Positions 32,844-48,170 of a stretch of 64,000 nucleotides of DNA are shown piece by piece (within the stretch, counting starts at the first letter, position 1; every line of letters starts with the position of its first letter). Origin of the DNA: Flammeovirgaceae bacterium UBA2366 (GTDB taxonomy: Bacteria > Bacteroidota > Bacteroidia > Cytophagales > Cyclobacteriaceae); contig DDTK01000011.1 of the NCBI GenBank assembly GCA_002344065.1, positions 641,977 through 705,976 on the forward strand. Reading direction: 5' to 3'. Below the pieces are notes generated by a model. It was not told the origin of the DNA, made no database searches, and saw nothing but the letters and a program-made list of their open reading frames with translations. The translations under genes were made by a program, and so were the position numbers.

Positions 32844-35495
32844 CTACTTATAAGCTACCGACATCTTTAGAATACGATCCTTCAACTGTTCACTGGTGAG
32901 TTTATCACGGCTAAGCCTGTCAACCATAATCGGAAAAGCAAAGGGCGTGGGCTTCTCTGGTCGCATCATGATTATTTTTTGATGGTTGATGCGGTCAAGG
33001 GCTTTACGCAACCGTGCTTCTTCCAGTTGAAAATCCATTACCTCTTCATACGCTTGCCGGAATAATAAATTATGCGCTTCATATTCGTGAAACACTTCAA
33101 AAAAAAGTTGGGAGGAAGATTGCAGGTGTCGGTCTTTTATCGGTTTACCCGGATAACCTTTAAACACCAATCCGGCAATGGAAGCTATGTCACGAAATTT
33201 TCTGCGGGCCATTTCGGTCGAGTTTATGCTGGACTGAATGTCCTTCATCAGTTCTTCGGTACCCAGCACGTTGGTTTCCACGGCTTCTTCAATCGGAATT
33301 TCCTGGTCGCTTAAAAGTTCAAAACCATAATCGTTCATAGCAATGGAAAAGGTGATGGGCTTGATCTTCGCGATGCGATACGCCACCAGCGCGGCCATGC
33401 CTTCATGCACGGCCCGACCTTCAAACGGGTACATCACCACATGGTGTCCTTCACCAGTTTCAAAATACTCAATAAGAAAATCACGTTTGCCCGGCAGGTG
33501 CGATCGCGACTTCTGTAAATCAAACAGAGGTTTTAAAAACGTAAGCTCTTCATCGTGCTCGTTTCCTTCCACTACTTCGTTAAGCTTATTACGAATGAGC
33601 TCGCTCAGTTGCGAGGATAAGGGCATCCTTCCACCCTGCCACGAAGGCACCAACCCCGATTTGCGTTTGCTTTTGCGCACCTGTGCTTCCATATCTTTTA
33701 TGCGCACCAGTTCCAGCACCTGGCCGGCAAACCAAAACGTATCCCCCGGATTTAACCGCGAAATAAAATACTCTTCAATGGTGCCCAGGTATTTTCCGGT
33801 AACGTACTTCACATGAAGTGATGTGTCGCCCACAATGGTGCCGATGGAAAGCCGGTGGCGTTGGGCAATCCTCCGGTCTTCTACTTTATAACGTCCATCT
33901 TTTTCAATAATCACTTTGCGGTATTCATCATAAGCCTGCAATGAGTCGCCACCGGTGGTAATAAAGTTGAGCATCCACTCCCACTCTTCATCGCTGATGC
34001 TGTTATAACTGAAGGTCGACCGGATCTCCTTTAAAATTTCATCGGGATAAAAACCATCCGACACGGCCAGCGTAACCAGGTATTGCATCAGCACATCAAA
34101 CGAGCGGATGTAGGGAATACGCTCCTCCACAATTCCTTTATCGATTGCTTCGCGCAATGCTGCGGCTTCCATCAACTCCAACGAATGTGTAGGAACAAAA
34201 TAAATCCGGCTCACGGCACCCGGCTGGTGACCACTGCGACCGGCACGCTGCAAGAAACGGGCAACACCTTTCGGACTGCCTACCTGTATTACTGTTTCCA
34301 CCGGACGGAAGTCGACCCCTAAATCCAAACTGGAAGTGCACACCACAGCTTTTAACTTACCATCATATAGTTGATCTTCCACCCAGTTGCGCATCTCTTT
34401 ACTGATTGACCCATGATGCATGGCGATAAGCCCTGAAAGCTCAGGTGCTTTGTCCAGCATTTTCTGATACCAAATCTCTGCGAAAGAACGTGTGTTGGTG
34501 AAGATGAGTGTGCTGGTGCTGCCCTTTACAATTTCTATCACCTTATCAAGCAATTGAATACCCAGGTGTCCCGCCCAGGGCATGGTTTCTACGGAGTCGG
34601 GCAAAACCGAAATGACTTCAACCTGCTTTTTGATGTCAGCTTTAATAAATATGGCGTCATTGCGAGAGAGTCCCGATGATAATTGGGACGACCGAAGCAA
34701 TCCCATTTCAGTTAAACCCATTCGGGATTGCTTCGCCCCGCTTTGTTGCGGGACTCGCAATGACGACTCCGAAGTGATTGATTCACCTACCAATATCTCA
34801 ATTGCCTGCTCCATATTGCCGATGGTTGCTGAAATACCCCATACTTTTAGTTGTGATGTTATCGTTCGTAAACGGGAGAGCGCCAACTCTACCTGCACCC
34901 CGCGTTTTGAGCCCATCAACTCGTGCCACTCATCGGCTACCACTACTTTCAACTCTTTAAAAAAATCAACGTAGTTTTTTTGGGCCAGCAGCAGGTGCAG
35001 ACTTTCAGGTGTGATAATGAGAAACTCCGGAGGTTTTGATTTCTGACGTTCACGATCTTTTGTAGAAGTATCACCCGACCGCACGCCTACTTTCCAGTTT
35101 AAGCCCAATCCTTCGATGGCACGGTTGGCCGAAAGTTCTATTTCTTTGGAAAGCGCCCGGATGGGTGTAATCCACAAAGCCTGTAAGCCCTGATTTCTTT
35201 TGGATAATTGATCAGGGTGGTCCCGTATAAACTCAAGCAGAATGGGTAATAATAAGGAGTACGTTTTACCACTTCCTGTAGGAGCATTTATTAGCCCACT
35301 TTTGCCTGCCAGGTAGGCTTGCCATGCCTCTCGCTGAAACGCAAAAGGCGTCCAGCCTTTCTGTTGAAACCAGTCTTCAGCAGGTTTTATGGTAGGTGTG
35401 CTTTTCACAGGCGGGAAGTTATCATGAAAAGCTATACTATTGAATTTTACACCGGCCTGGTTTGAATCAATCCCAAAACCAACTTGGTGAAACAT
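32844..35495 (-). CDS. lhr: Lhr-like DEXH-box helicase of the 'ligase-associated DNA damage response' type
   Basis: Motif I NAPTGSGKT, motif II VVADEWHE, motif III SAT, motif VI QRAGRSGH, and a long Lhr-type C-terminal domain. The start is set to the ATG at 35495. The 98 codons upstream in the track ORF overlap the divergent carH-like gene and show no helicase features. Confidence 0.85.
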   Translation of the reverse strand: MFHQVGFGIDSNQAGVKFNSIAFHDNFPPVKSTPTIKPAEDWFQQKGWTPFAFQREAWQAYLAGKSGLINAPTGSGKTYSLLLPILLEFIRDHPDQLSKRNQGLQALWITPIRALSKEIELSANRAIEGLGLNWKVGVRSGDTSTKDRERQKSKPPEFLIITPESLHLLLAQKNYVDFFKELKVVVADEWHELMGSKRGVQVELALSRLRTITSQLKVWGISATIGNMEQAIEILVGESITSESSLRVPQQSGAKQSRMGLTEMGLLRSSQLSSGLSRNDAIFIKADIKKQVEVISVLPDSVETMPWAGHLGIQLLDKVIEIVKGSTSTLIFTNTRSFAEIWYQKMLDKAPELSGLIAMHHGSISKEMRNWVEDQLYDGKLKAVVCTSSLDLGVDFRPVETVIQVGSPKGVARFLQRAGRSGHQPGAVSRIYFVPTHSLELMEAAALREAIDKGIVEERIPYIRSFDVLMQYLVTLAVSDGFYPDEILKEIRSTFSYNSISDEEWEWMLNFITTGGDSLQAYDEYRKVIIEKDGRYKVEDRRIAQRHRLSIGTIVGDTSLHVKYVTGKYLGTIEEYFISRLNPGDTFWFAGQVLELVRIKDMEAQVRKSKRKSGLVPSWQGGRMPLSSQLSELIRNKLNEVVEGNEHDEELTFLKPLFDLQKSRSHLPGKRDFLIEYFETGEGHHVVMYPFEGRAVHEGMAALVAYRIAKIKPITFSIAMNDYGFELLSDQEIPIEEAVETNVLGTEELMKDIQSSINSTEMARRKFRDIASIAGLVFKGYPGKPIKDRHLQSSSQLFFEVFHEYEAHNLLFRQAYEEVMDFQLEEARLRKALDRINHQKIIMMRPEKPTPFAFPIMVDRLSRDKLTSEQLKDRILKMSVAYK
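34655..34765. repeat. Nested palindromic repeat element (111 bp) lying in frame inside the helicase CDS
   Basis: Outer arms CGTCATTGCGAG (34655-34666) / CTCGCAATGACG (34754-34765). Second tier GAGTCCCG / CGGGACTC. Inner arms CGAAGCAATCCC (34693-34704) / GGGATTGCTTCG (34724-34735). It translates as SLRVPQQSGAKQSRMGLTEMGLLRSSQLSSGLSRND, the peptide signature of a widespread Bacteroidota intergenic repeat family. Confidence 0.75.
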
Positions 35496-35513
35496 TATTT
35501 GGGTATCTCTGTT

Positions 35514-35521
35514 TACATTTG
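35514..35521 (+). promoter_or_regulatory. Candidate Bacteroidota -7 box (TACATTTG) for the carH-like gene
   Basis: Matches TAnnTTTG 17 nt upstream of the ATG at 35538. I found no well-spaced -33 TTG. Confidence 0.3.
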
Positions 35522-35537
35522 AAAACCGATCTGATCC

Positions 35538-36416
35538 ATGGGCCAGTACTCTATTAAAGAACTCGAAAAGCTTTCCGGCATAAAAGCCCACACCATACGC
35601 ATCTGGGAAAAGCGGCACCACATTGTTGAGCCCCAACGCACCGATACCAACATCAGGCTGTACTCCGATGCAGATTTGAAGAAGATTATCAATGTTTCCC
35701 TGCTCAACACCAACGGGATCAAAATCTCCCACATTGCCGACATGACGCTGGAGGAAATAAACGGCAAAATCCTCGAGCTCAGCGAGCATAATACCGATAC
35801 GGTAATTTTCATAGACCAGTTAATTGTAGCCATGGTTGACCTTGACGAAGGGAAATTTGAAAAGCTTTTATCGGGTTTAATACTTCGCTTTGGCTTTGAG
35901 CGAACAGTTGTCGAAATAATTTACCCCTTCATGGAAAAAATTGGGGTACTGTGGCAAACCGAAAATGTTACCCCGGCACAGGAACACTTTATTTCCCATC
36001 TGATCAGACAAAAACTGATTGTAGCCATTGACGGATTATCCGTAATTCCAACCATACCAAAACGGGTATTACTTTACTTGCCTGAAAATGAATGGCATGA
36101 GTTAGGTCTCCTGTTCTACCATTACATTGTGCGCAAGGCAGGCTATAAAACTATTTACCTAGGACAGAGTGTGCCCTTCAAAGACGTAATCAGTGTTTCA
36201 GAAGCGCAACAACCTGATATTATTATTACGAGTATAATCAGCTCTCCTTTCGGAACAAAGGTGGAAGAATACCTCAGACAGCTGGCTACTGCCTTCCCAG
36301 CCAAGAAAGTTCTTGTTTCGGGGTATCAAACCAGGCATCTGGAAAAAAATAATTTCAAAAACATTGAGATTTTCCGAAACGTGCTGGATCTCAAGCAATT
36401 GTTATCTATTTCTTAA
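35538..36416 (+). CDS. carH: CarH/LitR-type MerR-family regulator with a B12-binding photoreceptor domain
   Basis: N-terminal MerR helix-turn-helix (YSIKELEKLSGIKAHTIRIWEKR). The Wx9EH motif is read directly (W-QTENVTPAQ-EH). The cobalamin lower-ligand motif ExHxxG (EWHELG) is followed about 41 residues later by S-I-I. The gene sits upstream of carotenoid genes. Confidence 0.85.
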   Translation: MGQYSIKELEKLSGIKAHTIRIWEKRHHIVEPQRTDTNIRLYSDADLKKIINVSLLNTNGIKISHIADMTLEEINGKILELSEHNTDTVIFIDQLIVAMVDLDEGKFEKLLSGLILRFGFERTVVEIIYPFMEKIGVLWQTENVTPAQEHFISHLIRQKLIVAIDGLSVIPTIPKRVLLYLPENEWHELGLLFYHYIVRKAGYKTIYLGQSVPFKDVISVSEAQQPDIIITSIISSPFGTKVEEYLRQLATAFPAKKVLVSGYQTRHLEKNNFKNIEIFRNVLDLKQLLSIS

Positions 36417-36530: not shown

Positions 36531-37031
36531 ATGACAGCACTAGAATTCGATTATCAGATTGCCAGCCTGCGCCCCACATTAAAAACTTTCACCCGCAGAT
36601 TCACCAATGACAGAGAAGAGTCGCACGACCTGGTGCAGGACACCATTCTCAAGGCGCTCACGTACCGCACCAAGTTTCGTGAAAATACTAACCTTAAAGG
36701 GTGGCTCTTCACTATTATGCGTAACACGTTCATCAATAACTACCGGAAAAATCAGCGTGCCAAAACATCGCATGACGATACTAAAGAGTTGTACTTCCTG
36801 AACGTGGAAGACACGCACACCTTTAACTCCCCGGGATCAAACTTCGAGTATAAAGACATCTGGAACCAGGTGAACAGCTTACGCGATGAATTGCTTGTGC
36901 CGTTTAAGATGCACACCTCTGGTTACAAGTATCATGAGATTGCCGAACACCTCAACATACCGATTGGCACGGTGAAGAATCGGATTTTTCATGCACGTAA
37001 AGAAATACAAGGTAAGTTGGCCGGATATTGA
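36531..37031 (+). CDS. ECF-type RNA polymerase sigma-70 family factor (LitS/CarQ-like by context)
   Basis: 166 aa with region 2 (DLVQDTILKAL...GWLFTIMRNTFINNYRK) and region 4 (YKYHEIAEHLNIPIGTVKNRIFHARKEI). Confidence 0.85.
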   Translation: MTALEFDYQIASLRPTLKTFTRRFTNDREESHDLVQDTILKALTYRTKFRENTNLKGWLFTIMRNTFINNYRKNQRAKTSHDDTKELYFLNVEDTHTFNSPGSNFEYKDIWNQVNSLRDELLVPFKMHTSGYKYHEIAEHLNIPIGTVKNRIFHARKEIQGKLAGY

Positions 37032-37074: not shown

Positions 37075-38556
37075 ATGAAAAAAGTTGCTGTTATAGGTTC
37101 AGGTTTTGCCGGATTATCCGCTGCTTGTCATCTTGCCAAAGCAGGCTACTCAGTAACTGTTTTTGAAAAAAACAGCACCCCGGGCGGACGCGCCAGGAAA
37201 TTTGAAGCCCAGGGATTTACTTTTGATATGGGGCCCAGCTGGTACTGGATGCCCGATGTATTTGAAAAGTTCTTTGCAGCCTTCGGCAAGAAACCATCCG
37301 ACTATTATACACTAGAACGATTGGATCCATCCTATCGGATTTATTACTCGGCTGAGGAACAACTCGATATTCCTTCCGGCATTGATGCCCTTTGCAAGAT
37401 GTTTGACCGGCTTGAGCCCGGCAGCAGTAAAAATCTCTTGAAATTTCTGGAGGAAGGAAAATACAAATATGAAATCGGGATTAATGAACTGGTTTATAAA
37501 CCTGGTTTGTCACTTTTAGAATTGGCCGATCCCAAATTAATGACCGGAGTTTTTAAACTACATGTCTTTCAATCCATATCCACATACGTTAGAAAATATT
37601 TTAAAGAAAAGAAGTTAATCCAGTTACTGGAATTTCCGGTATTGTTTCTGGGAGCAACCCCTCAAAAAACTCCCGCGCTATACAGTTTAATGAACTATGC
37701 TGATATGGCTTTAGGAACCTGGTATCCGCAGGGTGGCATGCATAAAATTATTGAAGGCATGGTACAACTGGCAACTGAGCTTGGGGTAACATTTGAATTC
37801 AATAGTGCCGTTCAACACTTGGAATTAAATGCAGTGAAGGCAAAAGGTGTAATGGTTAATAACCAATTCAGACCTTTCGACTACATCATTGCCGGTGCGG
37901 ATTATCATCATGTAGAGCAAACCCTGATACCGGAATCCTTCAGACGTTACGATGCCTCATATTGGGATAACAGGGTAATGGCACCTTCAAGCCTTATCTT
38001 CTACCTGGGGCTTAACAAAAAACTTGATGGGGTTCTTCATCACACACTATTCTTCGATCAGGATTTCGGCAAACATTCAGAAGAGATTTACGAAAACCCG
38101 CAGTGGCCTAGCAGTCCTCAGTTTTATATCAGTTGTCCATCCAAAACAGATGCCACCGTTGCACCTGCCGGTCATGAAAATGTTTTTATTCTTATACCGG
38201 TAGCGCCCGGTTTAAAGGATGATGAAACTACTCGTGAGCACTACTTTAACCTGGTAATGGAACGCTTTGAGAAAATGACCGGGCAATCCATTCGCGACAG
38301 TGTTGTATTTAAGCGTAGCTATGCCCATAATGATTTTATGGCTGATTATAATTCCTTTAAAGGAAATGCCTACGGATTAGCCAACACCTTGCTGCAAACA
38401 GCAAATCTTAAACCCAGTATGGTAAACAAAAAAATAAAAAACCTGTTTTATACAGGGCAATTAACCGTGCCAGGGCCGGGTGTACCCCCTTCCCTGATTT
38501 CGGGACAGGTAGTTGCTGGAGAGTTGGTAAAACGGGATAAAAAGTATAAACAATGA
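37075..38556 (+). CDS. crtI: Phytoene desaturase
   Basis: 493 aa with the N-terminal FAD fold VAVIGSGFAGLSAA...EKNSTPGGRA and the C-terminal CrtI signature (FYTGQLTVPGPGVP). Confidence 0.9.
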   Translation: MKKVAVIGSGFAGLSAACHLAKAGYSVTVFEKNSTPGGRARKFEAQGFTFDMGPSWYWMPDVFEKFFAAFGKKPSDYYTLERLDPSYRIYYSAEEQLDIPSGIDALCKMFDRLEPGSSKNLLKFLEEGKYKYEIGINELVYKPGLSLLELADPKLMTGVFKLHVFQSISTYVRKYFKEKKLIQLLEFPVLFLGATPQKTPALYSLMNYADMALGTWYPQGGMHKIIEGMVQLATELGVTFEFNSAVQHLELNAVKAKGVMVNNQFRPFDYIIAGADYHHVEQTLIPESFRRYDASYWDNRVMAPSSLIFYLGLNKKLDGVLHHTLFFDQDFGKHSEEIYENPQWPSSPQFYISCPSKTDATVAPAGHENVFILIPVAPGLKDDETTREHYFNLVMERFEKMTGQSIRDSVVFKRSYAHNDFMADYNSFKGNAYGLANTLLQTANLKPSMVNKKIKNLFYTGQLTVPGPGVPPSLISGQVVAGELVKRDKKYKQ

Positions 38557-38578
38557 GATTGATTAACTTTACTTCGTA

Positions 38579-39415
38579 ATGAAAGAACTTTACGACAAAG
38601 TTGCTATTCGATGCAGCCAGTTAACCACCCGGGCTTACAGTACCTCTTTTTCGTTAGGTATTCTGTGTCTTAAAAAAGAATTGCGCAATCCGATTTACAG
38701 TATTTATGGTTTTGTCAGGTTTGCTGATGAGATTGTAGACACCTTTCACGACTACAATAAGCAGGACTTATTCATGCGTTTTAAGGAGGAGACCTATAAA
38801 GCCATTGAAGATGGTATAAGCCTGAATCCCATCCTTCACAGTTTTCAGGAAACAGTACGAAAATATTCTATCGACCGTTCTTCCATTGATTTGTTTTTGC
38901 GCAGCATGGAAATGGATCTGAGTTTGAAAAGCTACGATCAGGAGGGTTTAAAGGAATATATTTTGGGCTCGGCAGAAGTGGTGGGTTTAATGTGCCTGCG
39001 TGTATTTGTAAAAGGTGACGATGCCTCGTATGAAAAACTCAAACCCATGGCCATGAGCCTGGGTTCAGCGTTTCAAAAAATAAATTTTCTCCGCGACCTG
39101 AATGCCGACTTCCTGCATATGGGACGTTCCTATTTTCCAGGATTAGATTTTGAAAAATTTGATGATGCCAAAAAAACGGAAATTGAAGAAAGCATCAAGA
39201 TAGATTTTGAAGAAGGTCTAAAAGGTATTAAACTGCTGCCCCGGTCTTCTCGCTTCGGGGTGTATGTAGCTTACGTTTATTATACAGCCCTCTTCAATAA
39301 GATAAAAAATACACCTTGCGAGCGCGTACTGGAAAGTCGGATACGCATTCGCAACAGGCACAAAGCCACCCTTCTGGCCTACTCCTACGTTAAACACCAA
39401 CTGAATCTGATCTGA
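38579..39415 (+). CDS. crtB: Phytoene synthase
   Basis: 278 aa, squalene/phytoene synthase family: YGFVRFADEIVD (Asp-rich 1), GSAEVVG, and INFLRDLNAD (Asp-rich 2 region). Confidence 0.9.
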   Translation: MKELYDKVAIRCSQLTTRAYSTSFSLGILCLKKELRNPIYSIYGFVRFADEIVDTFHDYNKQDLFMRFKEETYKAIEDGISLNPILHSFQETVRKYSIDRSSIDLFLRSMEMDLSLKSYDQEGLKEYILGSAEVVGLMCLRVFVKGDDASYEKLKPMAMSLGSAFQKINFLRDLNADFLHMGRSYFPGLDFEKFDDAKKTEIEESIKIDFEEGLKGIKLLPRSSRFGVYVAYVYYTALFNKIKNTPCERVLESRIRIRNRHKATLLAYSYVKHQLNLI

Positions 39416-39945
39416 TGGAGGAGTACGTTATTTTAGTGGACGAGCATGACAACGAATTGGGCGCCATGGAAAAAATGGAAGCCCATATAAAAGGTGTTTT
39501 ACATCGTGCTTTTTCCGTGCTCGTATTCAACACGAAAGGTGAAATGCTGATTCAAAGACGGGCCGATTGTAAATACCACAGCGCAGGTTTGTGGACAAAC
39601 ACATGTTGTAGTCACCCACGGGCTGGCGAGGAGATTGAAGAAGCAGCCCAACGCAGACTCAGGGAAGAAATGGGGCTTAATCTTCAACCGGAAAAAGCCT
39701 ATTCCTTTATTTATAGAATTGAACTGGATGGCGGACTGATAGAGAATGAGCTAGATCATGTGTTAATCGCCACATACGATGGCGAGCCCGTGCTTAACCC
39801 GGAAGAAGCGCAGGACTGGAAGTATATCAGTTTTTCTGCGTTAAAAGCCCGAATGAAATCCCATCCGCAAGAATTCACGCATTGGTTCAAACTGATTGTC
39901 AATCACCCAGAACTGAATGCTTTGGTAACAGCCTTGCCGATTTGA
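39415..39945 (+). CDS. idi: Isopentenyl-diphosphate delta-isomerase, type 1 (Nudix)
   Basis: 176 aa with HRAFSVLVFN and TNTCCSHPRAGE (catalytic Cys region) plus a Nudix-like E-rich helix. The start overlaps the crtB stop by 1 nt (TGATG). Confidence 0.9.
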   Translation: MEEYVILVDEHDNELGAMEKMEAHIKGVLHRAFSVLVFNTKGEMLIQRRADCKYHSAGLWTNTCCSHPRAGEEIEEAAQRRLREEMGLNLQPEKAYSFIYRIELDGGLIENELDHVLIATYDGEPVLNPEEAQDWKYISFSALKARMKSHPQEFTHWFKLIVNHPELNALVTALPI

Positions 39946-39990: not shown

Positions 39991-40158
39991 ATGTTCTCTT
40001 TTCTAAAAAAAGATCCGATCAACAATCTTGAAAATAAGCGTAAAAAATTACTGGAAGAGGCGATGCACATTCAGCGCTCAGGCGACCTGAAATTATACGC
40101 AGTTAAGATGGAAGCCATTGACAAACTGGAAAAGGAAATTGAAGCGCTTCGAAAATGA
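39991..40158 (+). CDS. Small helical protein (55 aa), Lacal_2735/DUF6435-like; absent from the ORF track because it is under 60 aa
   Basis: Hand-translated: MFSFLKKDPINNLENKRKKLLEEAMHIQRSGDLKLYAVKMEAIDKLEKEIEALRK, with a TGA stop at 40156-40158. It resembles a small-protein family recurrently annotated in Bacteroidota; this is from memory and not verified. Confidence 0.55.
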   Translation: MFSFLKKDPINNLENKRKKLLEEAMHIQRSGDLKLYAVKMEAIDKLEKEIEALRK

Positions 40159-41464
40159 TGCGGGCATTCAGGCCGTTGATGCAAATACTTGCCTTTTCTG
40201 GATGCGCAGGGATTTGCGGCTTCACGACAATGCCGGCCTATACCATGCCTTAAAAGAAAACAGCTCCGTACTGCCTGTTTTTATTTTTGATACTACCATC
40301 CTTGATAAACTGGATGATCCGGCCGATGCACGGGTGGAGTTTATTCATCAATCGCTCTACCTGATCAAGGAAGAACTTGAGGCCATTGGTTCTTCCCTGC
40401 TGGTACTTCATGGCAATCCGGAAGATATTTTTAAAACACTTGAACCCAAATCGGTTTACACCAACAACGATTACGAGCCCTACGCCCGCCAGCGTGATGA
40501 TGCCGTGAAGAAAATCCTCGGGTTAAAGAACATCGAATTTAAAGCATTCAAAGACCAGGTTATCTTCGAAAAAGCTGAAATCGTTAAAGATGATGGCAAG
40601 CCCTATACAGTCTATACACCATACAGCAAAAAATGGAAGGCCACATTGAAGCCAGAACACTACCGCAGCTTCAAAAATGAAGATCACTTTGATCATTTTA
40701 AAAAGATCAAAACGCTTCCGTTCCCAACACTTAAAGACATCGGATTTAAGCCATCCGGGCTGACTTTTCCGGAACGAAAAATCCGGCAAAGCATCATTGA
40801 GAAATACCACCTTCAGCGTGATTTGCCTGCTATTGAAAGCACCTCGCGCCTGAGTGTTCACCTACGCTTTGGTACCATAAGCATTCGCAAACTGGTTCAA
40901 GTAGCCCTTCAGAAAAATGAAAAGTGGTTAAATGAATTGATCTGGCGCGATTTCTACCATATGATTCTATGGCACTTTCCAACCGTTGAAAGAGCATTTA
41001 AGCCTGCTTACGATCGAATTGAGTGGCGCAACAATCCTGAAGAATTTAAGGCCTGGTGTGAGGGTAAAACGGGTTACCCCATTGTTGATGCCGGCATGCG
41101 TGAACTTAACGCCACGGGTTTTATGCACAACCGTGTACGCATGATTGTAGCAAGCTTTCTCACTAAACATTTACTGATCGACTGGCGATGGGGCGAAGCA
41201 TACTTTGCCAAAAAACTTCTCGACTTTGATTTAGCGGCTAACAATGGCGGCTGGCAATGGGCTGCAGGCTCAGGTTGTGACGCAGCACCTTACTTTCGTG
41301 TTTTTAACCCTTACATCCAGACGGAAAAATTCGATCCGGAAAATAAGTATATCAAAAAATGGATACCGGAATTTGGCACAAAGGATTATCCTAAACCGAT
41401 AGTAGAGCATGCCTTCGCACGCGACCGGGTATTAGCCGTATACAAAGAAGCACTTAACACATAG
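40118..41464 (+). CDS. Cryptochrome/photolyase-family protein (class I CPD photolyase or Cry-DASH type)
   Basis: FWMRRDLRLHDNAGL N-terminal alpha/beta domain. FAD domain with TSRLSVHLRFGTIS, LIWRDFY, TGYPIVDAGMREL, GFMHNRVRMIVASF and GGWQWAAGSGCDAAPYFRVFNP. The start is uncertain: the TTG at 40118 and the TTG at 40139 both overlap the small ORF. Confidence 0.85.
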   Translation: MTNWKRKLKRFENDAGIQAVDANTCLFWMRRDLRLHDNAGLYHALKENSSVLPVFIFDTTILDKLDDPADARVEFIHQSLYLIKEELEAIGSSLLVLHGNPEDIFKTLEPKSVYTNNDYEPYARQRDDAVKKILGLKNIEFKAFKDQVIFEKAEIVKDDGKPYTVYTPYSKKWKATLKPEHYRSFKNEDHFDHFKKIKTLPFPTLKDIGFKPSGLTFPERKIRQSIIEKYHLQRDLPAIESTSRLSVHLRFGTISIRKLVQVALQKNEKWLNELIWRDFYHMILWHFPTVERAFKPAYDRIEWRNNPEEFKAWCEGKTGYPIVDAGMRELNATGFMHNRVRMIVASFLTKHLLIDWRWGEAYFAKKLLDFDLAANNGGWQWAAGSGCDAAPYFRVFNPYIQTEKFDPENKYIKKWIPEFGTKDYPKPIVEHAFARDRVLAVYKEALNT

Positions 41465-41467
41465 TTC

Positions 41468-41620
41468 ATGCGTGGTGTAAAGAAATCTGATCTGCCGGAA
41501 AAAATTTGTGTTGTGTGCAACCGACCGTTTACCTGGCGCAAAAAATGGGAGAAGGTATGGAATGAAGTAAAATACTGCAGCGACCGTTGCCGGAGTTCAA
41601 AAACTCCGTCATTATGCTGA
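41468..41620 (+). CDS. DUF2256 zinc-ribbon protein (50 aa); absent from the ORF track
   Basis: Hand-translated: [50 protein letters not shown], with a stop at 41618-41620. CxxC...Cx3C and the FTWRKKW...VKYCS.RCR pattern match DUF2256. Confidence 0.75.
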
Positions 41621-41670: not shown

Positions 41671-43134
41671 ATGGATGTTTCCATGATTTTCCCCCATCAA
41701 TTGTTCAAATCAAATCCTGCCCTGAAAAAAGGACGGAACACCATACTTATTGAAGAAGATCTGTTCTTTACGCACCATCCGTTTCATAAACAAAAGCTGG
41801 TTCTTCACCGGGCCTCCATGAAAAGCTATGAAAAGCAGTTGGAGAAGAAAGGCATAAACATCTCGTACATCGAAAACGAAAAGGGAAAAACACTTTCGAA
41901 ACTATTTAACAAGCTGAACAAAACAGGTGTAACTTCTATTCACTACACCGATACCGTTGATTACTTATTGGAACGCAGGTTAAATCGTTATGCCGGGAAG
42001 TGCGGAATAAAATTGATTCAATACCCCTCTCCTAACTTCATTTGCTCCGAAGATTTTATTCATACCTTCTTCAGCAAAAAGAAACGCTATTTTCAAACCG
42101 ATTTTTACATTGAATTAAGAAAACAAAACAACATTTTAATTGATAAAGGTACTCCCGAAGGTGGATCATGGACCTACGATGTATTGAACCGAAAGCGATT
42201 ACCATCAGCTATTTCAATCCCTGCCCGACAGACATTATCCGAGAATTCATTTGTTGTTGAAGCAAAAAAATATGTAGAGAAGAATTTCCCTGAACACTAC
42301 GGATCGGTTGAAGATTTCAACTACCCCATAAACTGTGAACAAGCCGGGCAAACGCTTGATAAATTTATAGCTGATTACTTTAGTCAGTATGGTGATTACC
42401 AGGATGCCATCGATAAAGAAGACTCCTTTCTTTTTCATTCTGTGTTAACACCCAGTTTGAATATTGGTTTACTTCAGCCCGAAGACATTTTAGATGAGGC
42501 AATAAAAGCTTACACCAGAAAAAGAATTCCGCTTAACTCGGTTGAAGGATTTGTTCGGCAAATATTAGGTTGGCGGGAATTTATTCGATCTGTCTACATC
42601 CGTGAAGGTGTTCGTGAACGAACCACCAACTACTTTAACCATCATCGAAAAATTCCAACATCATTCTACACCGGAACAACGGGCATTGGGCCGGTTGATG
42701 CAGTAATTAAGCGCATACTTAAAACCGGGTATGCCAATCACATTGAACGACTAATGATTCTTGGAAATTTTATGTTACTCTGCGGATTTCACCCGGATGA
42801 CATTTATAAATGGTTTATGGAACTGTTTATCGATGCTTACGACTGGGTTATGGTACCCAACGTGTATGGTATGAGCCAGTTTGCGGATGGCGGGTTGATG
42901 GCAACCAAACCTTATATCAGTGGATCGAATTATATCTTAAAGATGAGTCACTATAAAAAAGGAGAATGGTGCAACATTTGGGATGGCCTGTACTGGAAAT
43001 TTATTGATACGCATAAAGAATTATTTATCAAAAACCCAAGGATGAGCATGATGGCAAAGCTTTTGGAAAAAATGGATTCATCCAGGCGAAAAAAACTTTT
43101 CCACGCGGCTGACAACTTCCTTAAATCAGTATGA
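41671..43134 (+). CDS. FeS-BCP / (6-4) photolyase-like cryptochrome-photolyase family protein (COG3046 type)
   Basis: 487 aa. The N-terminus (IFPHQLF...ILIEEDLFF...HKQKLVLHRASM) and C-terminal half (GWREFIR, GYANHIERLMILGNF, DAYDWVMVPNVYGMSQFADGG, YISGSNYILKMS) are typical of PhrB/CryB-type proteins. Confidence 0.8.
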   Translation: MDVSMIFPHQLFKSNPALKKGRNTILIEEDLFFTHHPFHKQKLVLHRASMKSYEKQLEKKGINISYIENEKGKTLSKLFNKLNKTGVTSIHYTDTVDYLLERRLNRYAGKCGIKLIQYPSPNFICSEDFIHTFFSKKKRYFQTDFYIELRKQNNILIDKGTPEGGSWTYDVLNRKRLPSAISIPARQTLSENSFVVEAKKYVEKNFPEHYGSVEDFNYPINCEQAGQTLDKFIADYFSQYGDYQDAIDKEDSFLFHSVLTPSLNIGLLQPEDILDEAIKAYTRKRIPLNSVEGFVRQILGWREFIRSVYIREGVRERTTNYFNHHRKIPTSFYTGTTGIGPVDAVIKRILKTGYANHIERLMILGNFMLLCGFHPDDIYKWFMELFIDAYDWVMVPNVYGMSQFADGGLMATKPYISGSNYILKMSHYKKGEWCNIWDGLYWKFIDTHKELFIKNPRMSMMAKLLEKMDSSRRKKLFHAADNFLKSV

Positions 43135-43616
43135 TGAAAAGCCTGCGCAAAAAACCCTGGAACCGAGTTGATCAACCCGTGTACAGCATCGCAAGCAAAG
43201 CCGGTGGTCAGGCAAATATGAACATCTGTTCGTATGTTACACCTGTCTCGATGAAACCCAAGCAGTTTATTGTTGCCATCTACAAAAATACCTTAACACT
43301 GGAACTGGTCAGGAAAAACCCTGAATTTATATTGCAATATCTGACCCGCGATCAACACCGATTAATTACTCTGCTAGGGAAAAAGTCTGGTTATTCCATA
43401 GACAAAATTCAACGACTGAAAAACAAGGTTGAATCTTTCAATGATTTTGTAGTCTTAAAAGATTGCCTGGCGTATGTTCACTTGAAGGCTGTGGCCTGGC
43501 TTGATGGAGGCGACCATTGGTGTGCCCTCTGCAATGTTATTGCCTATAAAAATATACAGGAAGCCGTACCGTTAACGCTTGATTACCTTCGGGATAAAAA
43601 AATTATCTCAGCATGA
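43131..43616 (+). CDS. Flavin reductase-like (split-barrel FMN-binding) domain protein
   Basis: 161 aa. The pattern ...NMNICSYVTPVSMKPKQFIVAIYKNTLTLELV... resembles the flavin reductase/HpaC-like fold. ATGA start/stop overlaps at both ends. Confidence 0.6.
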   Translation: MMKSLRKKPWNRVDQPVYSIASKAGGQANMNICSYVTPVSMKPKQFIVAIYKNTLTLELVRKNPEFILQYLTRDQHRLITLLGKKSGYSIDKIQRLKNKVESFNDFVVLKDCLAYVHLKAVAWLDGGDHWCALCNVIAYKNIQEAVPLTLDYLRDKKIISA

Positions 43617-44719
43617 TTACGTCCGTAAAGTCATTGAAGGAATTAAACAACGACATTGACCGGCTCGACCCGGTGGCGTATGGCCAAACCCGAAACTACC
43701 TCGATGGTGCCGTCAGCAAGCTATCTCCCTATATTAGTCGTGGTTTTATTACACTACCCTACCTGAAAGACCGGATACTATCACGTGTTTCCTTACCCGA
43801 TGCCGAATCATTTATTTACGAATTATGCTGGCGGGAATATTTTCAACGCATCTGGTTTGCGCAAGGCGATAAAATATTTACCGACTTTAAAAATAAACAA
43901 CTACCTATTGCGCATTACCACTTGCCTCAGGTACTGCTGGAAGCAACCACAGGAATTCACGTAATCGATGAGCAACTTAAATCACTTTATTCTTCCGGTT
44001 ATATGCATAATCATGCGCGCATGTACATCGCATCATTGGCGTGCAATATAGCCCGGGCACATTGGTTGGTTCCTTCACGCTGGCTATACTATCATTTATT
44101 GGATGGCGATCTGGCCAGCAATGCGCTTAGCTGGCAGTGGGTGGCTGGTACATTCAGCTCAAAAAAATATTACTTTAACCAAAACAACGTGAATACCTAC
44201 AGCCGGACTGTACAGCAGCATACCTTCATGGATTTTTCATACGAAGAAATTATGAAAATGAACACCCCACCTGCTTTACAAGAAACATCTGAACTTACGC
44301 TTAAAACTATCCTGCCAAAACCTACATCCTTATCGCTTGATTATACCAAATCACTTTTCCTGTACACTTCGTATACCCTCGATCCACAGTGGCGTACCAA
44401 TACAAATGCCAACCGTCTACTTGTGCTTGAACCCTCTCATTTTAATTCGTTTCCTGTATCGGATAACGCTTTAAACTTTATCCTTTCCTTGGCAGAAAAA
44501 ATAAATGACCTTCAGGTTTATGTGGGCGAAGTGACCAACCTGCCCGGCCTGGAGGAATTTCCGGAAATTATCAGTAAACAGCACCCGACAACCCAACACT
44601 TTCCGGGACATAAAGATGAGCCAGCGTGGATGTTTCCGGAGGTTCCGGAGCCTCGCGGATCCTTCACAGGATTTTGGAAAAGTTGTGAAAAAGTATTGAT
44701 AAGGAACACACCCATATGA
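43613..44719 (+). CDS. Photolyase-homology protein with only the FAD-binding helical domain plus a ~150-aa C-terminal domain
   Basis: 368 aa. It begins directly with the FAD-domain entry motif (YGQTRNYLDGAVSKLSPYISRGFI). ELCWREYFQ, GYMHNHARMYIASL and LLDGDLASNALSWQWVAGT follow. No N-terminal alpha/beta antenna domain is present. Confidence 0.75.
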   Translation: MITSVKSLKELNNDIDRLDPVAYGQTRNYLDGAVSKLSPYISRGFITLPYLKDRILSRVSLPDAESFIYELCWREYFQRIWFAQGDKIFTDFKNKQLPIAHYHLPQVLLEATTGIHVIDEQLKSLYSSGYMHNHARMYIASLACNIARAHWLVPSRWLYYHLLDGDLASNALSWQWVAGTFSSKKYYFNQNNVNTYSRTVQQHTFMDFSYEEIMKMNTPPALQETSELTLKTILPKPTSLSLDYTKSLFLYTSYTLDPQWRTNTNANRLLVLEPSHFNSFPVSDNALNFILSLAEKINDLQVYVGEVTNLPGLEEFPEIISKQHPTTQHFPGHKDEPAWMFPEVPEPRGSFTGFWKSCEKVLIRNTPI

Positions 44720-46155
44720 AATCGCTAACCATTTTACTTACCGGTTCAACTGGCTATATCGGCAGGCGTTTATTGCCGGTGTTGCTCGAACAAGGGCATC
44801 ATATCATTTGTCTCGTTCGTGATAAGCGCAGGTTCGATTTCGAAGATTTTTCGGATGAGCATCAGCAACACCTGTCGGTAGTGGAAGCTGACCTGAATAA
44901 TCCGGATACGTTAAAGCAGCTGCCAAAAGAGATTGACCTGGCCTACTACCTTGTTCATTCCATGAGCACCTCGGAAGATTTTCTGGCACTCGAACAGAAA
45001 TCAGCGGAAACATTTGTAGGCTACATTAACCAAACTACAGCTAAACAAATTATTTACCTCAGCGGAATTGTAAACGATCCTTCTCTCTCTAAACACCTGA
45101 GCTCCAGAAAAAATGTAGAAGATATTTTAAGTCAGTCTACAGCCCGTTTAACCGTATTGCGCGCTGCAATTATTATTGGTTCCGGAAGTGCCTCATTCGA
45201 AATCATCCGCGATCTGGTGGAGAAGCTACCGGTAATGATTGCACCCAAATGGCTGAAAAGTCGCTGCCAACCTATTGGCATTCGAAATGTTATTGAGTAC
45301 CTGATTGGTGTGATTTTAAAAGAAGAAACATTCGGACAGTCTTTTGATATTGGCGGACCAGACATAGTTACTTACAAAGAAATGCTGATGGGCTATGCGC
45401 GTGTACGCGGATTGAAACGCTGGATCATTCCGGTGCCGGTGTTATCACCGCAGCTCTCTTCACACTGGCTTTATTTTGTTACGTCAACATCCTTCACGCT
45501 GGCCAAAAGTCTGGTGAGCAGTTTAAAAAATGAAGTTATCTGTTCCGACAATCGTATCCAGGCAATTGTTCCTCTAAAATTACTTAACTACGAAGAAACG
45601 TTACGCTTAACACTCGATCGCATTCAGCAACGGCTGGTAATTTCAAGTTGGAAAGATGCAGTTCCTACCGATGCCATCGATCAAAACTTTCTGAACTATA
45701 TTGAAGTACCCACCTTTGGCTGTTTCAATGATAAGCGAACCATAACGTTTAACCGGCCTAAAGAAGAGGTTATTGACAACATCTGGAAAATCGGAGGAGA
45801 CCAGGGGTGGTATTATGGTAACTGGATGTGGCGCATACGCGGATTCGTTGATAAACTTTTTGGAGGCGTGGGGTTAAGGCGCGGACGAAGAAATGCCACT
45901 GATTTGAAGGCGGGTGATGCCCTCGATTTTTGGCGGGTATTGCTGGCCGATAAGAAAAACGGAAGGCTACTGCTCTATGCCGAAATGAAATTACCCGGAG
46001 AAGCCTGGCTGGAGTTCAAAATTCAGGAAAATATTTTAGTTCAAACGGCAACATTTCGACCACTCGGTCTGTGGGGACGTATTTACTGGTACGCTGTGCT
46101 CCCCTTTCATGGCCTTATTTTTCCCGGCATGATCAGAAACATTGTACGGGTTTAG
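44716..46155 (+). CDS. NAD(P)-binding SDR/NmrA-like domain fused to DUF2867
   Basis: 479 aa with Rossmann LLTGSTGYIGRRL. The C-terminal region (GDALDFWRV...LYAEMKLPGEAWLEF) is typical of DUF2867. Confidence 0.75.
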   Translation: MKSLTILLTGSTGYIGRRLLPVLLEQGHHIICLVRDKRRFDFEDFSDEHQQHLSVVEADLNNPDTLKQLPKEIDLAYYLVHSMSTSEDFLALEQKSAETFVGYINQTTAKQIIYLSGIVNDPSLSKHLSSRKNVEDILSQSTARLTVLRAAIIIGSGSASFEIIRDLVEKLPVMIAPKWLKSRCQPIGIRNVIEYLIGVILKEETFGQSFDIGGPDIVTYKEMLMGYARVRGLKRWIIPVPVLSPQLSSHWLYFVTSTSFTLAKSLVSSLKNEVICSDNRIQAIVPLKLLNYEETLRLTLDRIQQRLVISSWKDAVPTDAIDQNFLNYIEVPTFGCFNDKRTITFNRPKEEVIDNIWKIGGDQGWYYGNWMWRIRGFVDKLFGGVGLRRGRRNATDLKAGDALDFWRVLLADKKNGRLLLYAEMKLPGEAWLEFKIQENILVQTATFRPLGLWGRIYWYAVLPFHGLIFPGMIRNIVRV

Positions 46156-47879: not shown

Positions 47880-48170
47880 CTAACCAATAATTTCAACTTC
47901 CTTTACCTTCTTTTCCTTTTTAGCCTTTAAACCATTTAGAGGCTTGGCTGCCTTCTTTTCAGCTTTTGCCGCTTTCTTTTCGGCCTTAATAGCCTTTTTC
48001 TTTGCTTCTTTATTATCCTTAACAACTGCAGAAGCCAGCTTTTTTGATGATTTGCTGATTAACTTTTTAACCTTTTTGGATGGCTTAGGATCTTCCAAGG
48101 TCACCACTTCGTTAATAGTACCCGCGAATTTATTCTTCAAGTCCTTTTTCAATGCTTTCGTTTTATTCAT
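47880..48170 (-). CDS. Lysine/alanine-rich histone H1-like small basic protein
   Basis: 96 aa with KKAIKAEKKAAKAEKKAAK repeats. The composition resembles bacterial histone-H1-like proteins. The antisense ORF at 47944-48192 is a low-complexity shadow. Confidence 0.55.
   Translation of the reverse strand: MNKTKALKKDLKNKFAGTINEVVTLEDPKPSKKVKKLISKSSKKLASAVVKDNKEAKKKAIKAEKKAAKAEKKAAKPLNGLKAKKEKKVKEVEIIG

Follow-up and report, generated by a model that had tools for sequence, protein, structure and literature searches.

Introduction

Bacterial photolyases with an 'inverted topology', in which the catalytic domain is N-terminal, have been described as NewPHL (Emmerich et al. 2020, Nucleic Acids Research, PMC7736829) and, independently, as SPL (Xu et al. 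2021, Molecular Biology and Evolution, PMC8476157), the two names referring to the same class. The catalytic domain of NewPHLs is followed by an ordered, C-terminal Z-domain of ~150 amino acids (aa) that covariation places over the flavin adenine dinucleotide (FAD); FAD is the sole chromophore, a Trp dyad is present, and repair of cyclobutane pyrimidine dimers (CPD) is limited to single-stranded DNA (PMC7736829). The two characterised NewPHLs, DsNewPHL from Dinoroseobacter shibae and MmNewPHL from Methylobacterium mesophilicum, carry no antenna chromophore (PMC7736829). Among the SPLs, subgroup 'Ba' consists mostly of Bacteroidetes proteins, has Cyclobacterium marinum as its representative and lacks the four iron-sulfur (Fe-S) cysteines, and a single operon with both the SPL gene and a FeS-BCP gene is predicted for C. 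marinum (PMC8476157). Here, I describe a gene for a 368-aa protein of this class, together with the flavin reductase-like gene that overlaps it, in a stretch of 64,000 nucleotides (the window) from Flammeovirgaceae bacterium UBA2366 (assembly GCA_002344065.1, contig DDTK01000011.1, positions 641,977 to 705,976 of the forward strand).

The architecture, the inverted topology, and the operon link to a 6-4 photolyase gene are already published, and the window gene is a further member of the class. The recurrence of flavin reductase-like genes in its neighbourhood is the sole aspect of this study that was not found described in the literature.

A photolyase whose catalytic domain is N-terminal

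The 368-aa protein is very probably a FAD-only, light-driven NewPHL/SPL photolyase of the Bacteroidetes subgroup, an assignment to clade based on its architecture, its residues, the taxon, and the operon context. Its gene would be one cistron of a long carotenoid/photolyase operon, with the neighbouring PF01613 gene as a facultative accessory. The gene, its two domains, and the genes that overlap or adjoin it are as follows (positions are those of the window):

43613..44719, + strand: NewPHL/SPL-type photolyase gene, 368 aa, with an N-terminal catalytic FAD domain and a C-terminal Z-domain
43613..44275, + strand: catalytic all-helical FAD-binding domain, residues 1-221 (PF03441, 1dnp alignment, invariant columns, Foldseek)
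44276..44716, + strand: Z-domain, residues 222-368 (conservation, models)
43131..43616, + strand: flavin reductase-like gene, 161 aa, PF01613
41671..43134, + strand: DPRP / prokaryotic 6-4 photolyase-family gene, 487 aa (PF04244 and PF03441 matches)
44716..46155, + strand: NAD(P)-binding short-chain dehydrogenase/reductase (SDR) fused to DUF2867, 479 aa (list of open reading frames, Pfam)

The 368-aa gene is real, since its product has 6595 homologues at E<=1e-5, the nearest named ones being from Cyclobacteriaceae, Chitinophagaceae, and Flavobacteriaceae (Flagellimonas). PF03441 FAD_binding_7 is its sole Pfam match (residues 67-200, profile positions 1-139 of 203, E 4.7e-22), and neither PF00875 nor PF04244, the antenna-domain families, was matched in the Pfam scan. 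Residues 8-189 align with the stretch ~220-413 of canonical photolyases and DASH cryptochromes of ~485 aa (6kii, 1np7; PDB sequences), so that the start of the protein coincides with that of the helical domain. Searching the full-length model against the PDB with Foldseek superposed only the FAD domain on photolyases, over ~200-230 columns, and no NewPHL/SPL structure turned up either there or in the PDB sequence search.

The N-terminal helical domain is predicted to hold the FAD and the lesion-binding residues. Residues 65-196 align with residues 269-404 of 1dnp in the PDB sequence search, and by this offset E70, W73, N133, R136, M137, D164, N170, W174, and W176 correspond to E274, W277, N341, R344, M345, D372, N378, W382, and W384 of EcCPDI. 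Across 55 homologues, no variation is seen at W73, N133, R136, D164, N170, W174, and W176 and very little at M137, while position 70 is E in most and Q in some. Two electron-transfer Trp residues, W151 and W174, are present and likewise invariant; the stretch between W81 and W151 has no Trp at all, and hence the triad lacks its distal Trp. The spacing of N133, W151, W174, and W176 equals that of N151, W169, W192, and W194 in DsNewPHL. There are only three Cys residues (72, 144, and 358), and the four Fe-S cysteines of SPL subgroups C and Ac are absent. A reading made beforehand from the letters of this DNA, with no database searches (the sequence-only reading), had claimed that the protein starts exactly at the FAD-binding helical domain, has no antenna domain at its N-terminus, and keeps the core motifs; these claims are borne out by the alignment, the single Pfam match, and the conservation of the FAD and CPD residues, respectively.

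A recurrent flavin reductase-like neighbour

All three junctions along this series of genes (DPRP/reductase, reductase/NewPHL, and NewPHL/SDR-DUF2867) read ATGA, with each start codon overlapping the previous stop; for the first two, the overlap had already been pointed out in the sequence-only reading. The SDR-DUF2867 fusion gene (44716-46155, + strand) is translationally coupled to the NewPHL gene. At L081, the closest metagenome relative of the reductase, an SDR-DUF2867 gene comes directly after the reductase and NewPHL is absent.

The 161-aa protein matches PF01613 Flavin_Reduct (E 2.9e-19, 70.1 bits against a gathering cut-off of 27) and belongs to a small Bacteroidota subfamily, of which 326 members were found among 5.8 billion proteins in a search whose reach is limited by its word pre-filter. 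Conserved motifs of the subfamily are PWNR, S-M-x-P-K, GKKSG, and G-D-H, and the S-M-x-P-K (S-x-x-P) and G-D-H segments align with PheA2 and PH0856. The NCBIfam equivalog models of two-component monooxygenase reductases (HpaC, HsaB, RutF) reached 31.5 bits at best against a cut-off of 340, and no oxygenase partner gene was found in the cluster by the list of open reading frames, Pfam, or the syntenic relative.

Gene neighbourhoods were compared in two samples, one of 80 genome loci anchored on NewPHL (one per species) and one of 80 metagenome loci anchored on the reductase. Gene orders are written with D for DPRP, N for NewPHL, F and F2 for the window and the second PF01613 type, P for another photolyase, and u for DUF2805. 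Among the genome loci, the window type of PF01613 stood directly upstream of NewPHL in 15/80, and a second, distant PF01613 type (204 aa, S-N-P-P motif, Pfam-confirmed) was present in the clusters of 21/80, where it fills the gap between DPRP and NewPHL or sits just upstream of DPRP (e.g. L027:5331-5945, L030:5334-5948, L039:5340-5954). Either type was found in 34 of the 80 loci, with both in L042 and L078, and typical orders were D-F-N, D-F-u-N, D-F2-N, N-P-F2-D, and N-F2-D. The metagenome loci showed DPRP immediately upstream of the reductase in 41 of the 64 that were assessable, and 26 of the 31 with enough flank had DPRP and/or NewPHL (19 D+N, 3 D+N+P, 2 D only, 2 N only).

At the level of gene neighbourhood, the flavin reductase association is real: it is recurrent yet facultative, and the bond of the reductase with DPRP is no looser than that with NewPHL. 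The sequence-only reading had suggested a flavin-binding partner for the 368-aa protein, and the recurrence with two distant PF01613 subfamilies upholds the partnership in a weaker form, as a gene neighbourhood that is facultative and no more particular to NewPHL than to DPRP; a role of the reductase as an antenna in trans found no support. Neither founding paper (PMC7736829, PMC8476157) mentions a flavin reductase, and no literature link between flavin reductases and photolyases was found.

A ~90-aa DUF2805/TIGR03643 gene lies just upstream of NewPHL in 36/80 genome loci, often between the reductase and NewPHL (e.g. L083:5477-5749, L042:5708-5983). It is absent from the window, and no literature link of DUF2805 to photolyases was found. 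One lineage carries DPRP, reductase, DUF2805, and NewPHL as a variable module between a divergent short-chain dehydrogenase and a pair of enolase-superfamily (MR/MLE) and 4HBT thioesterase genes (L125, L146, L156, L123, L131, L005, etc.). The 365-aa open reading frames downstream of some reductases, considered by their length as divergent NewPHLs, were rejected as enolase-superfamily proteins.

The reductase might instead be unrelated to photolyases, that is, a resident gene of a conserved site around which photolyase genes were repeatedly inserted or lost. Such a history is conceivable but doubtful: the window subfamily does occur without any photolyase gene, as sdr< F mle te (L125, L146, L156, and others), and the same site is also seen as D N without F (L005, L008, L012, L025, L026, L029, L077), yet the window lineage and others have a different backbone (the carotenoid operon) and nevertheless keep the D-F-N order with overlapping codons (also L082, L083). 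Moreover, hitch-hiking at one site fails to explain the second PF01613 subfamily, which, in Flavobacteriia and further lineages, is found at corresponding places (D F2 N, P F2 D, N F2 D). A functional link is favoured over hitch-hiking because two distant PF01613 branches hold equivalent positions on different chromosomal backbones.

Proposed role of the reductase

As a functional partner, the 161-aa protein would be a facultative accessory of the photolyase module. As a best guess, it would reduce flavin with NAD(P)H, and this reduction may help to keep photolyase flavins in, or return them to, the active reduced state. Such a role would suit both NewPHL and DPRP, since NewPHL has only two of the three electron-transfer Trp residues and DPRP has no Fe-S cluster. 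Together, the recurring PF01613 subfamilies and DUF2805 in these clusters yield a candidate, concrete and open to testing, for a partner that reduces flavin for photolyases in the dark. A more far-reaching proposal is that two unrelated PF01613 branches were recruited to Bacteroidota photolyase clusters as dedicated, light-independent 'photolyase reductases', with NAD(P)H regenerating the FADH- of NewPHL and of the Fe-S-less 6-4-type photolyase. In this strong form the proposal is unlikely; if true, dedicated photolyase reductases would be the first genetically defined answer to the in vivo upkeep of reduced photolyase flavin.

The Z-domain and the question of circular permutation

The sequence-only reading had counted about 150 residues after the FAD domain, and these correspond to residues 222-368 (~147), which are conserved and confidently folded. 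An AlphaFold2 model of the full-length protein, built with 55 homologues, reached a predicted local distance difference test (pLDDT) of 96.2 and a predicted template modelling score (pTM) of 0.93, and the Z-domain modelled alone reached a pLDDT of 93.2; in these models, the values for residues 222-368 were 93-97. In the full-length model, the Z-domain has strands at 247-251, 266-272, 300-304, 319-322, and 333-335 and main helices at 274-279, 284-295, and 351-365. Its invariant residues in the 55 homologues include W260, P281, P325, and W355, with W339, F341, P342, and F351 near-invariant. Most likely, the Z-domain packs over the flavin in place of the missing antenna domain.

Is the 368-aa protein a circularly permuted canonical photolyase, with a Z-domain that is the ancestral antenna domain moved to the C-terminus and perhaps still able to bind a chromophore? 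The sequence-only reading had raised this idea from a strand-helix pattern that can be seen by eye in the N-terminus of DPRP, and the modelled Z-domain is indeed alpha/beta with five strands. By covariation, Emmerich et al. place it and the antenna domain on one and the same side of the FAD domain, note in a figure legend a resemblance over the first 125 residues, and list 'domain swapping' as one of two scenarios (PMC7736829). Against this, Foldseek with the isolated Z-domain, a chain-order-dependent comparison, gave 0 matches in the PDB at E<=1e-3 and no photolyase among the top 50, the best being Rossmann-like SAM (S-adenosylmethionine) methyltransferases (E 0.026, TM 0.34); the modelled fold is ordered and alpha/beta, with no Foldseek match to photolyase alpha/beta domains. 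No Pfam family matched any of 37 Z-domains even at E<=10. Aligning the Z-domain profile (108 sequences) with a profile of the DPRP N-domain (77 sequences) by hhalign gave a probability of 4%, in a register unlike that of the earlier alignment, compared with 0.3% for an SDR control; as the profiles are shallow (effective number of sequences 3.5-4.7), this is a weak negative. A search of 1.84 billion representative proteins with the Z-domain profile returned 300 matches and no canonical photolyase, and the domain was C-terminal in every listed full-length match (338-460 aa), the shorter matches being fragment-like. Finally, the two characterised NewPHLs have no antenna chromophore (PMC7736829).

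Permutation is therefore distinctly unlikely. Since Foldseek, Pfam, hhalign, and the profile search show no link to antenna domains, the Z-domain is best described as a generic, fast-evolving alpha/beta domain, and the tests run lend no support to its origin as an antenna domain that changed place; a very distant kinship, or one of topology only, is conceivable. The high-confidence model of the Z-domain argues against a simple antenna permutation and bears on the published debate on whether NewPHL/SPL is ancestral or derived.

A probable carotenoid/photolyase operon

The NewPHL gene, very probably a repair photolyase gene as set out above, is part of a + strand cluster at ~35.5-47.8 kb with regulators, carotenoid/isoprenoid genes, and three photolyase-family genes. 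Besides the genes already given, the cluster contains:

35538-36416, + strand: MerR + B12-binding regulator (CarH/LitR type), at the cluster head
36531-37031, + strand: extracytoplasmic function (ECF) sigma factor, at the cluster head
37075..39945, + strand: phytoene desaturase, phytoene synthase, and NUDIX-type isopentenyl diphosphate (IPP) isomerase
39991-40158, + strand: 55-aa open reading frame, DUF6435 by synteny with L161
40118..41464, + strand: two-domain CPD photolyase, class I-like, 448 aa from TTG (PF00875 and PF03441)
41468..41620, + strand: 50-aa Cys-rich open reading frame, DUF2256 by synteny with L161
46170..47844, + strand: SRPBCC-like protein, 163-aa protein at the crtZ position, and lycopene cyclase, at the cluster end

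The order of the cluster is identical in L161, a locus from a Cyclobacteriaceae metagenome-assembled genome, including the MerR-B12 and ECF sigma genes at its head. The 163-aa protein at the position of crtZ (carotene hydroxylase) was assigned by reading its sequence and has no Pfam match. The cluster has the look of an operon that serves photoprotection and photorepair in response to light: the operon is probably light-induced because it lies behind a MerR regulator dependent on B12 and an ECF sigma factor, which suggests B12-dependent light control of the cluster. Scans for sigma-70 promoters and terminators gave background levels and were uninformative.

The CPD photolyase of the cluster (40118..41464) scored 400 bits with TIGR03556 and 227 bits with crypto_DASH, and a DASH cryptochrome was rejected as its identity, the NCBIfam scores favouring a class I CPD photolyase. 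The rarity of NewPHL and DASH co-occurrence is thus inapplicable in the window. Its true start is probably downstream of the TTG at 40118, since the 55-aa open reading frame overlaps the reading from TTG; the corresponding gene of L161 encodes 420 aa.

Alignment of the DPRP with solved 6-4 photolyases from bacteria runs end to end (9hnk, E 1.4e-90), and in the 9hnk alignment the DPRP has 0/4 Fe-S cysteines and a 10-residue deletion at the site of Cys2-4. The same 0/4 was found in 77/77 DPRP homologues from Bacteroidota loci. FeS-BCPs are defined by four clustered cysteines for a 4Fe-4S cluster (C350, C438, C441, and C454 in PhrB), which are stated to be conserved in all FeS-BCPs, and the window DPRP is not a FeS-BCP by this original definition because it has none of them. 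The label 'FeS-BCP-like' that the gene had first been given is accordingly right for the family (DPRP / prokaryotic 6-4) and wrong for the cysteines.

A large Lhr-type helicase gene (DEAD, WH_Lhr, DEAD_assoc; 32844-35789, - strand) lies divergently beside the cluster, an arrangement shared with L161. At 47880-48170 on the - strand there is a 96-aa lysine/alanine-rich open reading frame with KKAAKAEKKAAK repeats, histone H1-like in look; L161 has an open reading frame of equal length with no Pfam match.

It is highly improbable that the 368-aa protein controls the carotenoid/photolyase operon as a light sensor (bacterial cryptochrome) and is not a repair enzyme, an option that Xu et al. raise for SPLs with C-terminal extensions and that the location inside a light-response operon and the weak repair activity of characterised members (PMC8476157) would fit, given that the CPD-binding and catalytic residues are all invariant or nearly so in the 55 homologues, that characterised NewPHL and SPL members repair CPDs (PMC7736829, PMC8476157), and that the cluster already has a dedicated regulator of the B12-MerR photoreceptor type.

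Several observations weigh against the overall assignment of the 368-aa protein as a light-driven repair photolyase in a light-induced operon with an accessory reductase. Light induction is deduced solely from the regulator genes. The published Z-domain has a conserved Trp and a 'GFF' motif, and the putative counterparts of the latter are G-F-W in the window protein and S-F-x-x-F-W-K in the consensus of its lineage. As to the accessory, 5/31 well-flanked reductase loci have no photolyase gene, the reductase standing beside an enolase-superfamily gene and a thioesterase, and one syntenic site is found as F only, D+F, F+N, D+N, and D+F+N, so the reductase is dispensable.

Comparison with known systems

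Like NAD(P)H:flavin reductases of the HpaC/PheA2/RutF type and flavin mononucleotide (FMN)-binding split-barrel proteins (1RZ0, 2R6V), the 161-aa protein has a PF01613 domain with conserved S-x-x-P and GDH segments. Unlike the HpaC/PheA2/RutF-type reductases, to which it is very distant (PDB E ~1e-4), it has no monooxygenase partner nearby and is found in the context of photolyase genes instead. The window DPRP resembles the Fe-S-less prokaryotic 6-4 photolyases of 'subgroup M' (e.g. PromaPL; PMC9178010) in being a full-length family member in which the four cysteines are absent, and by its sequence it is probably of this published type.

[quoted passage not shown] It differs from them in having no N-terminal alpha/beta domain or interdomain linker and no distal Trp, in carrying a Z-domain, and in a PF03441 match that ends at profile position 139 of 203.

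The likeness to NewPHL is as follows: an N-terminal FAD domain, no antenna, and an ordered Z-domain of ~150 aa are found in both, the residues of the CPD active site and the Trp dyad are kept at equal spacing, and the gene occurs together with those for a class I-type CPD photolyase and for a member of the prokaryotic 6-4 photolyase family. The window protein is of a Bacteroidota lineage, however, and its Z-domain sequence is divergent, the profile of the lineage reaching only the 300 representative proteins mentioned above. Compared with SPL subgroup 'Ba', the window has a flavin reductase-like gene between the photolyase and the FeS-BCP-family gene, whereas PMC8476157 mentions neither such a gene nor DUF2805. 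By its published description, the C. marinum protein (CmSPL) agrees with the window protein in class, phylum, and family (Cyclobacteriaceae), in the absence of the four-Cys Fe-S motif, and in sharing a predicted operon with a FeS-BCP-family gene.

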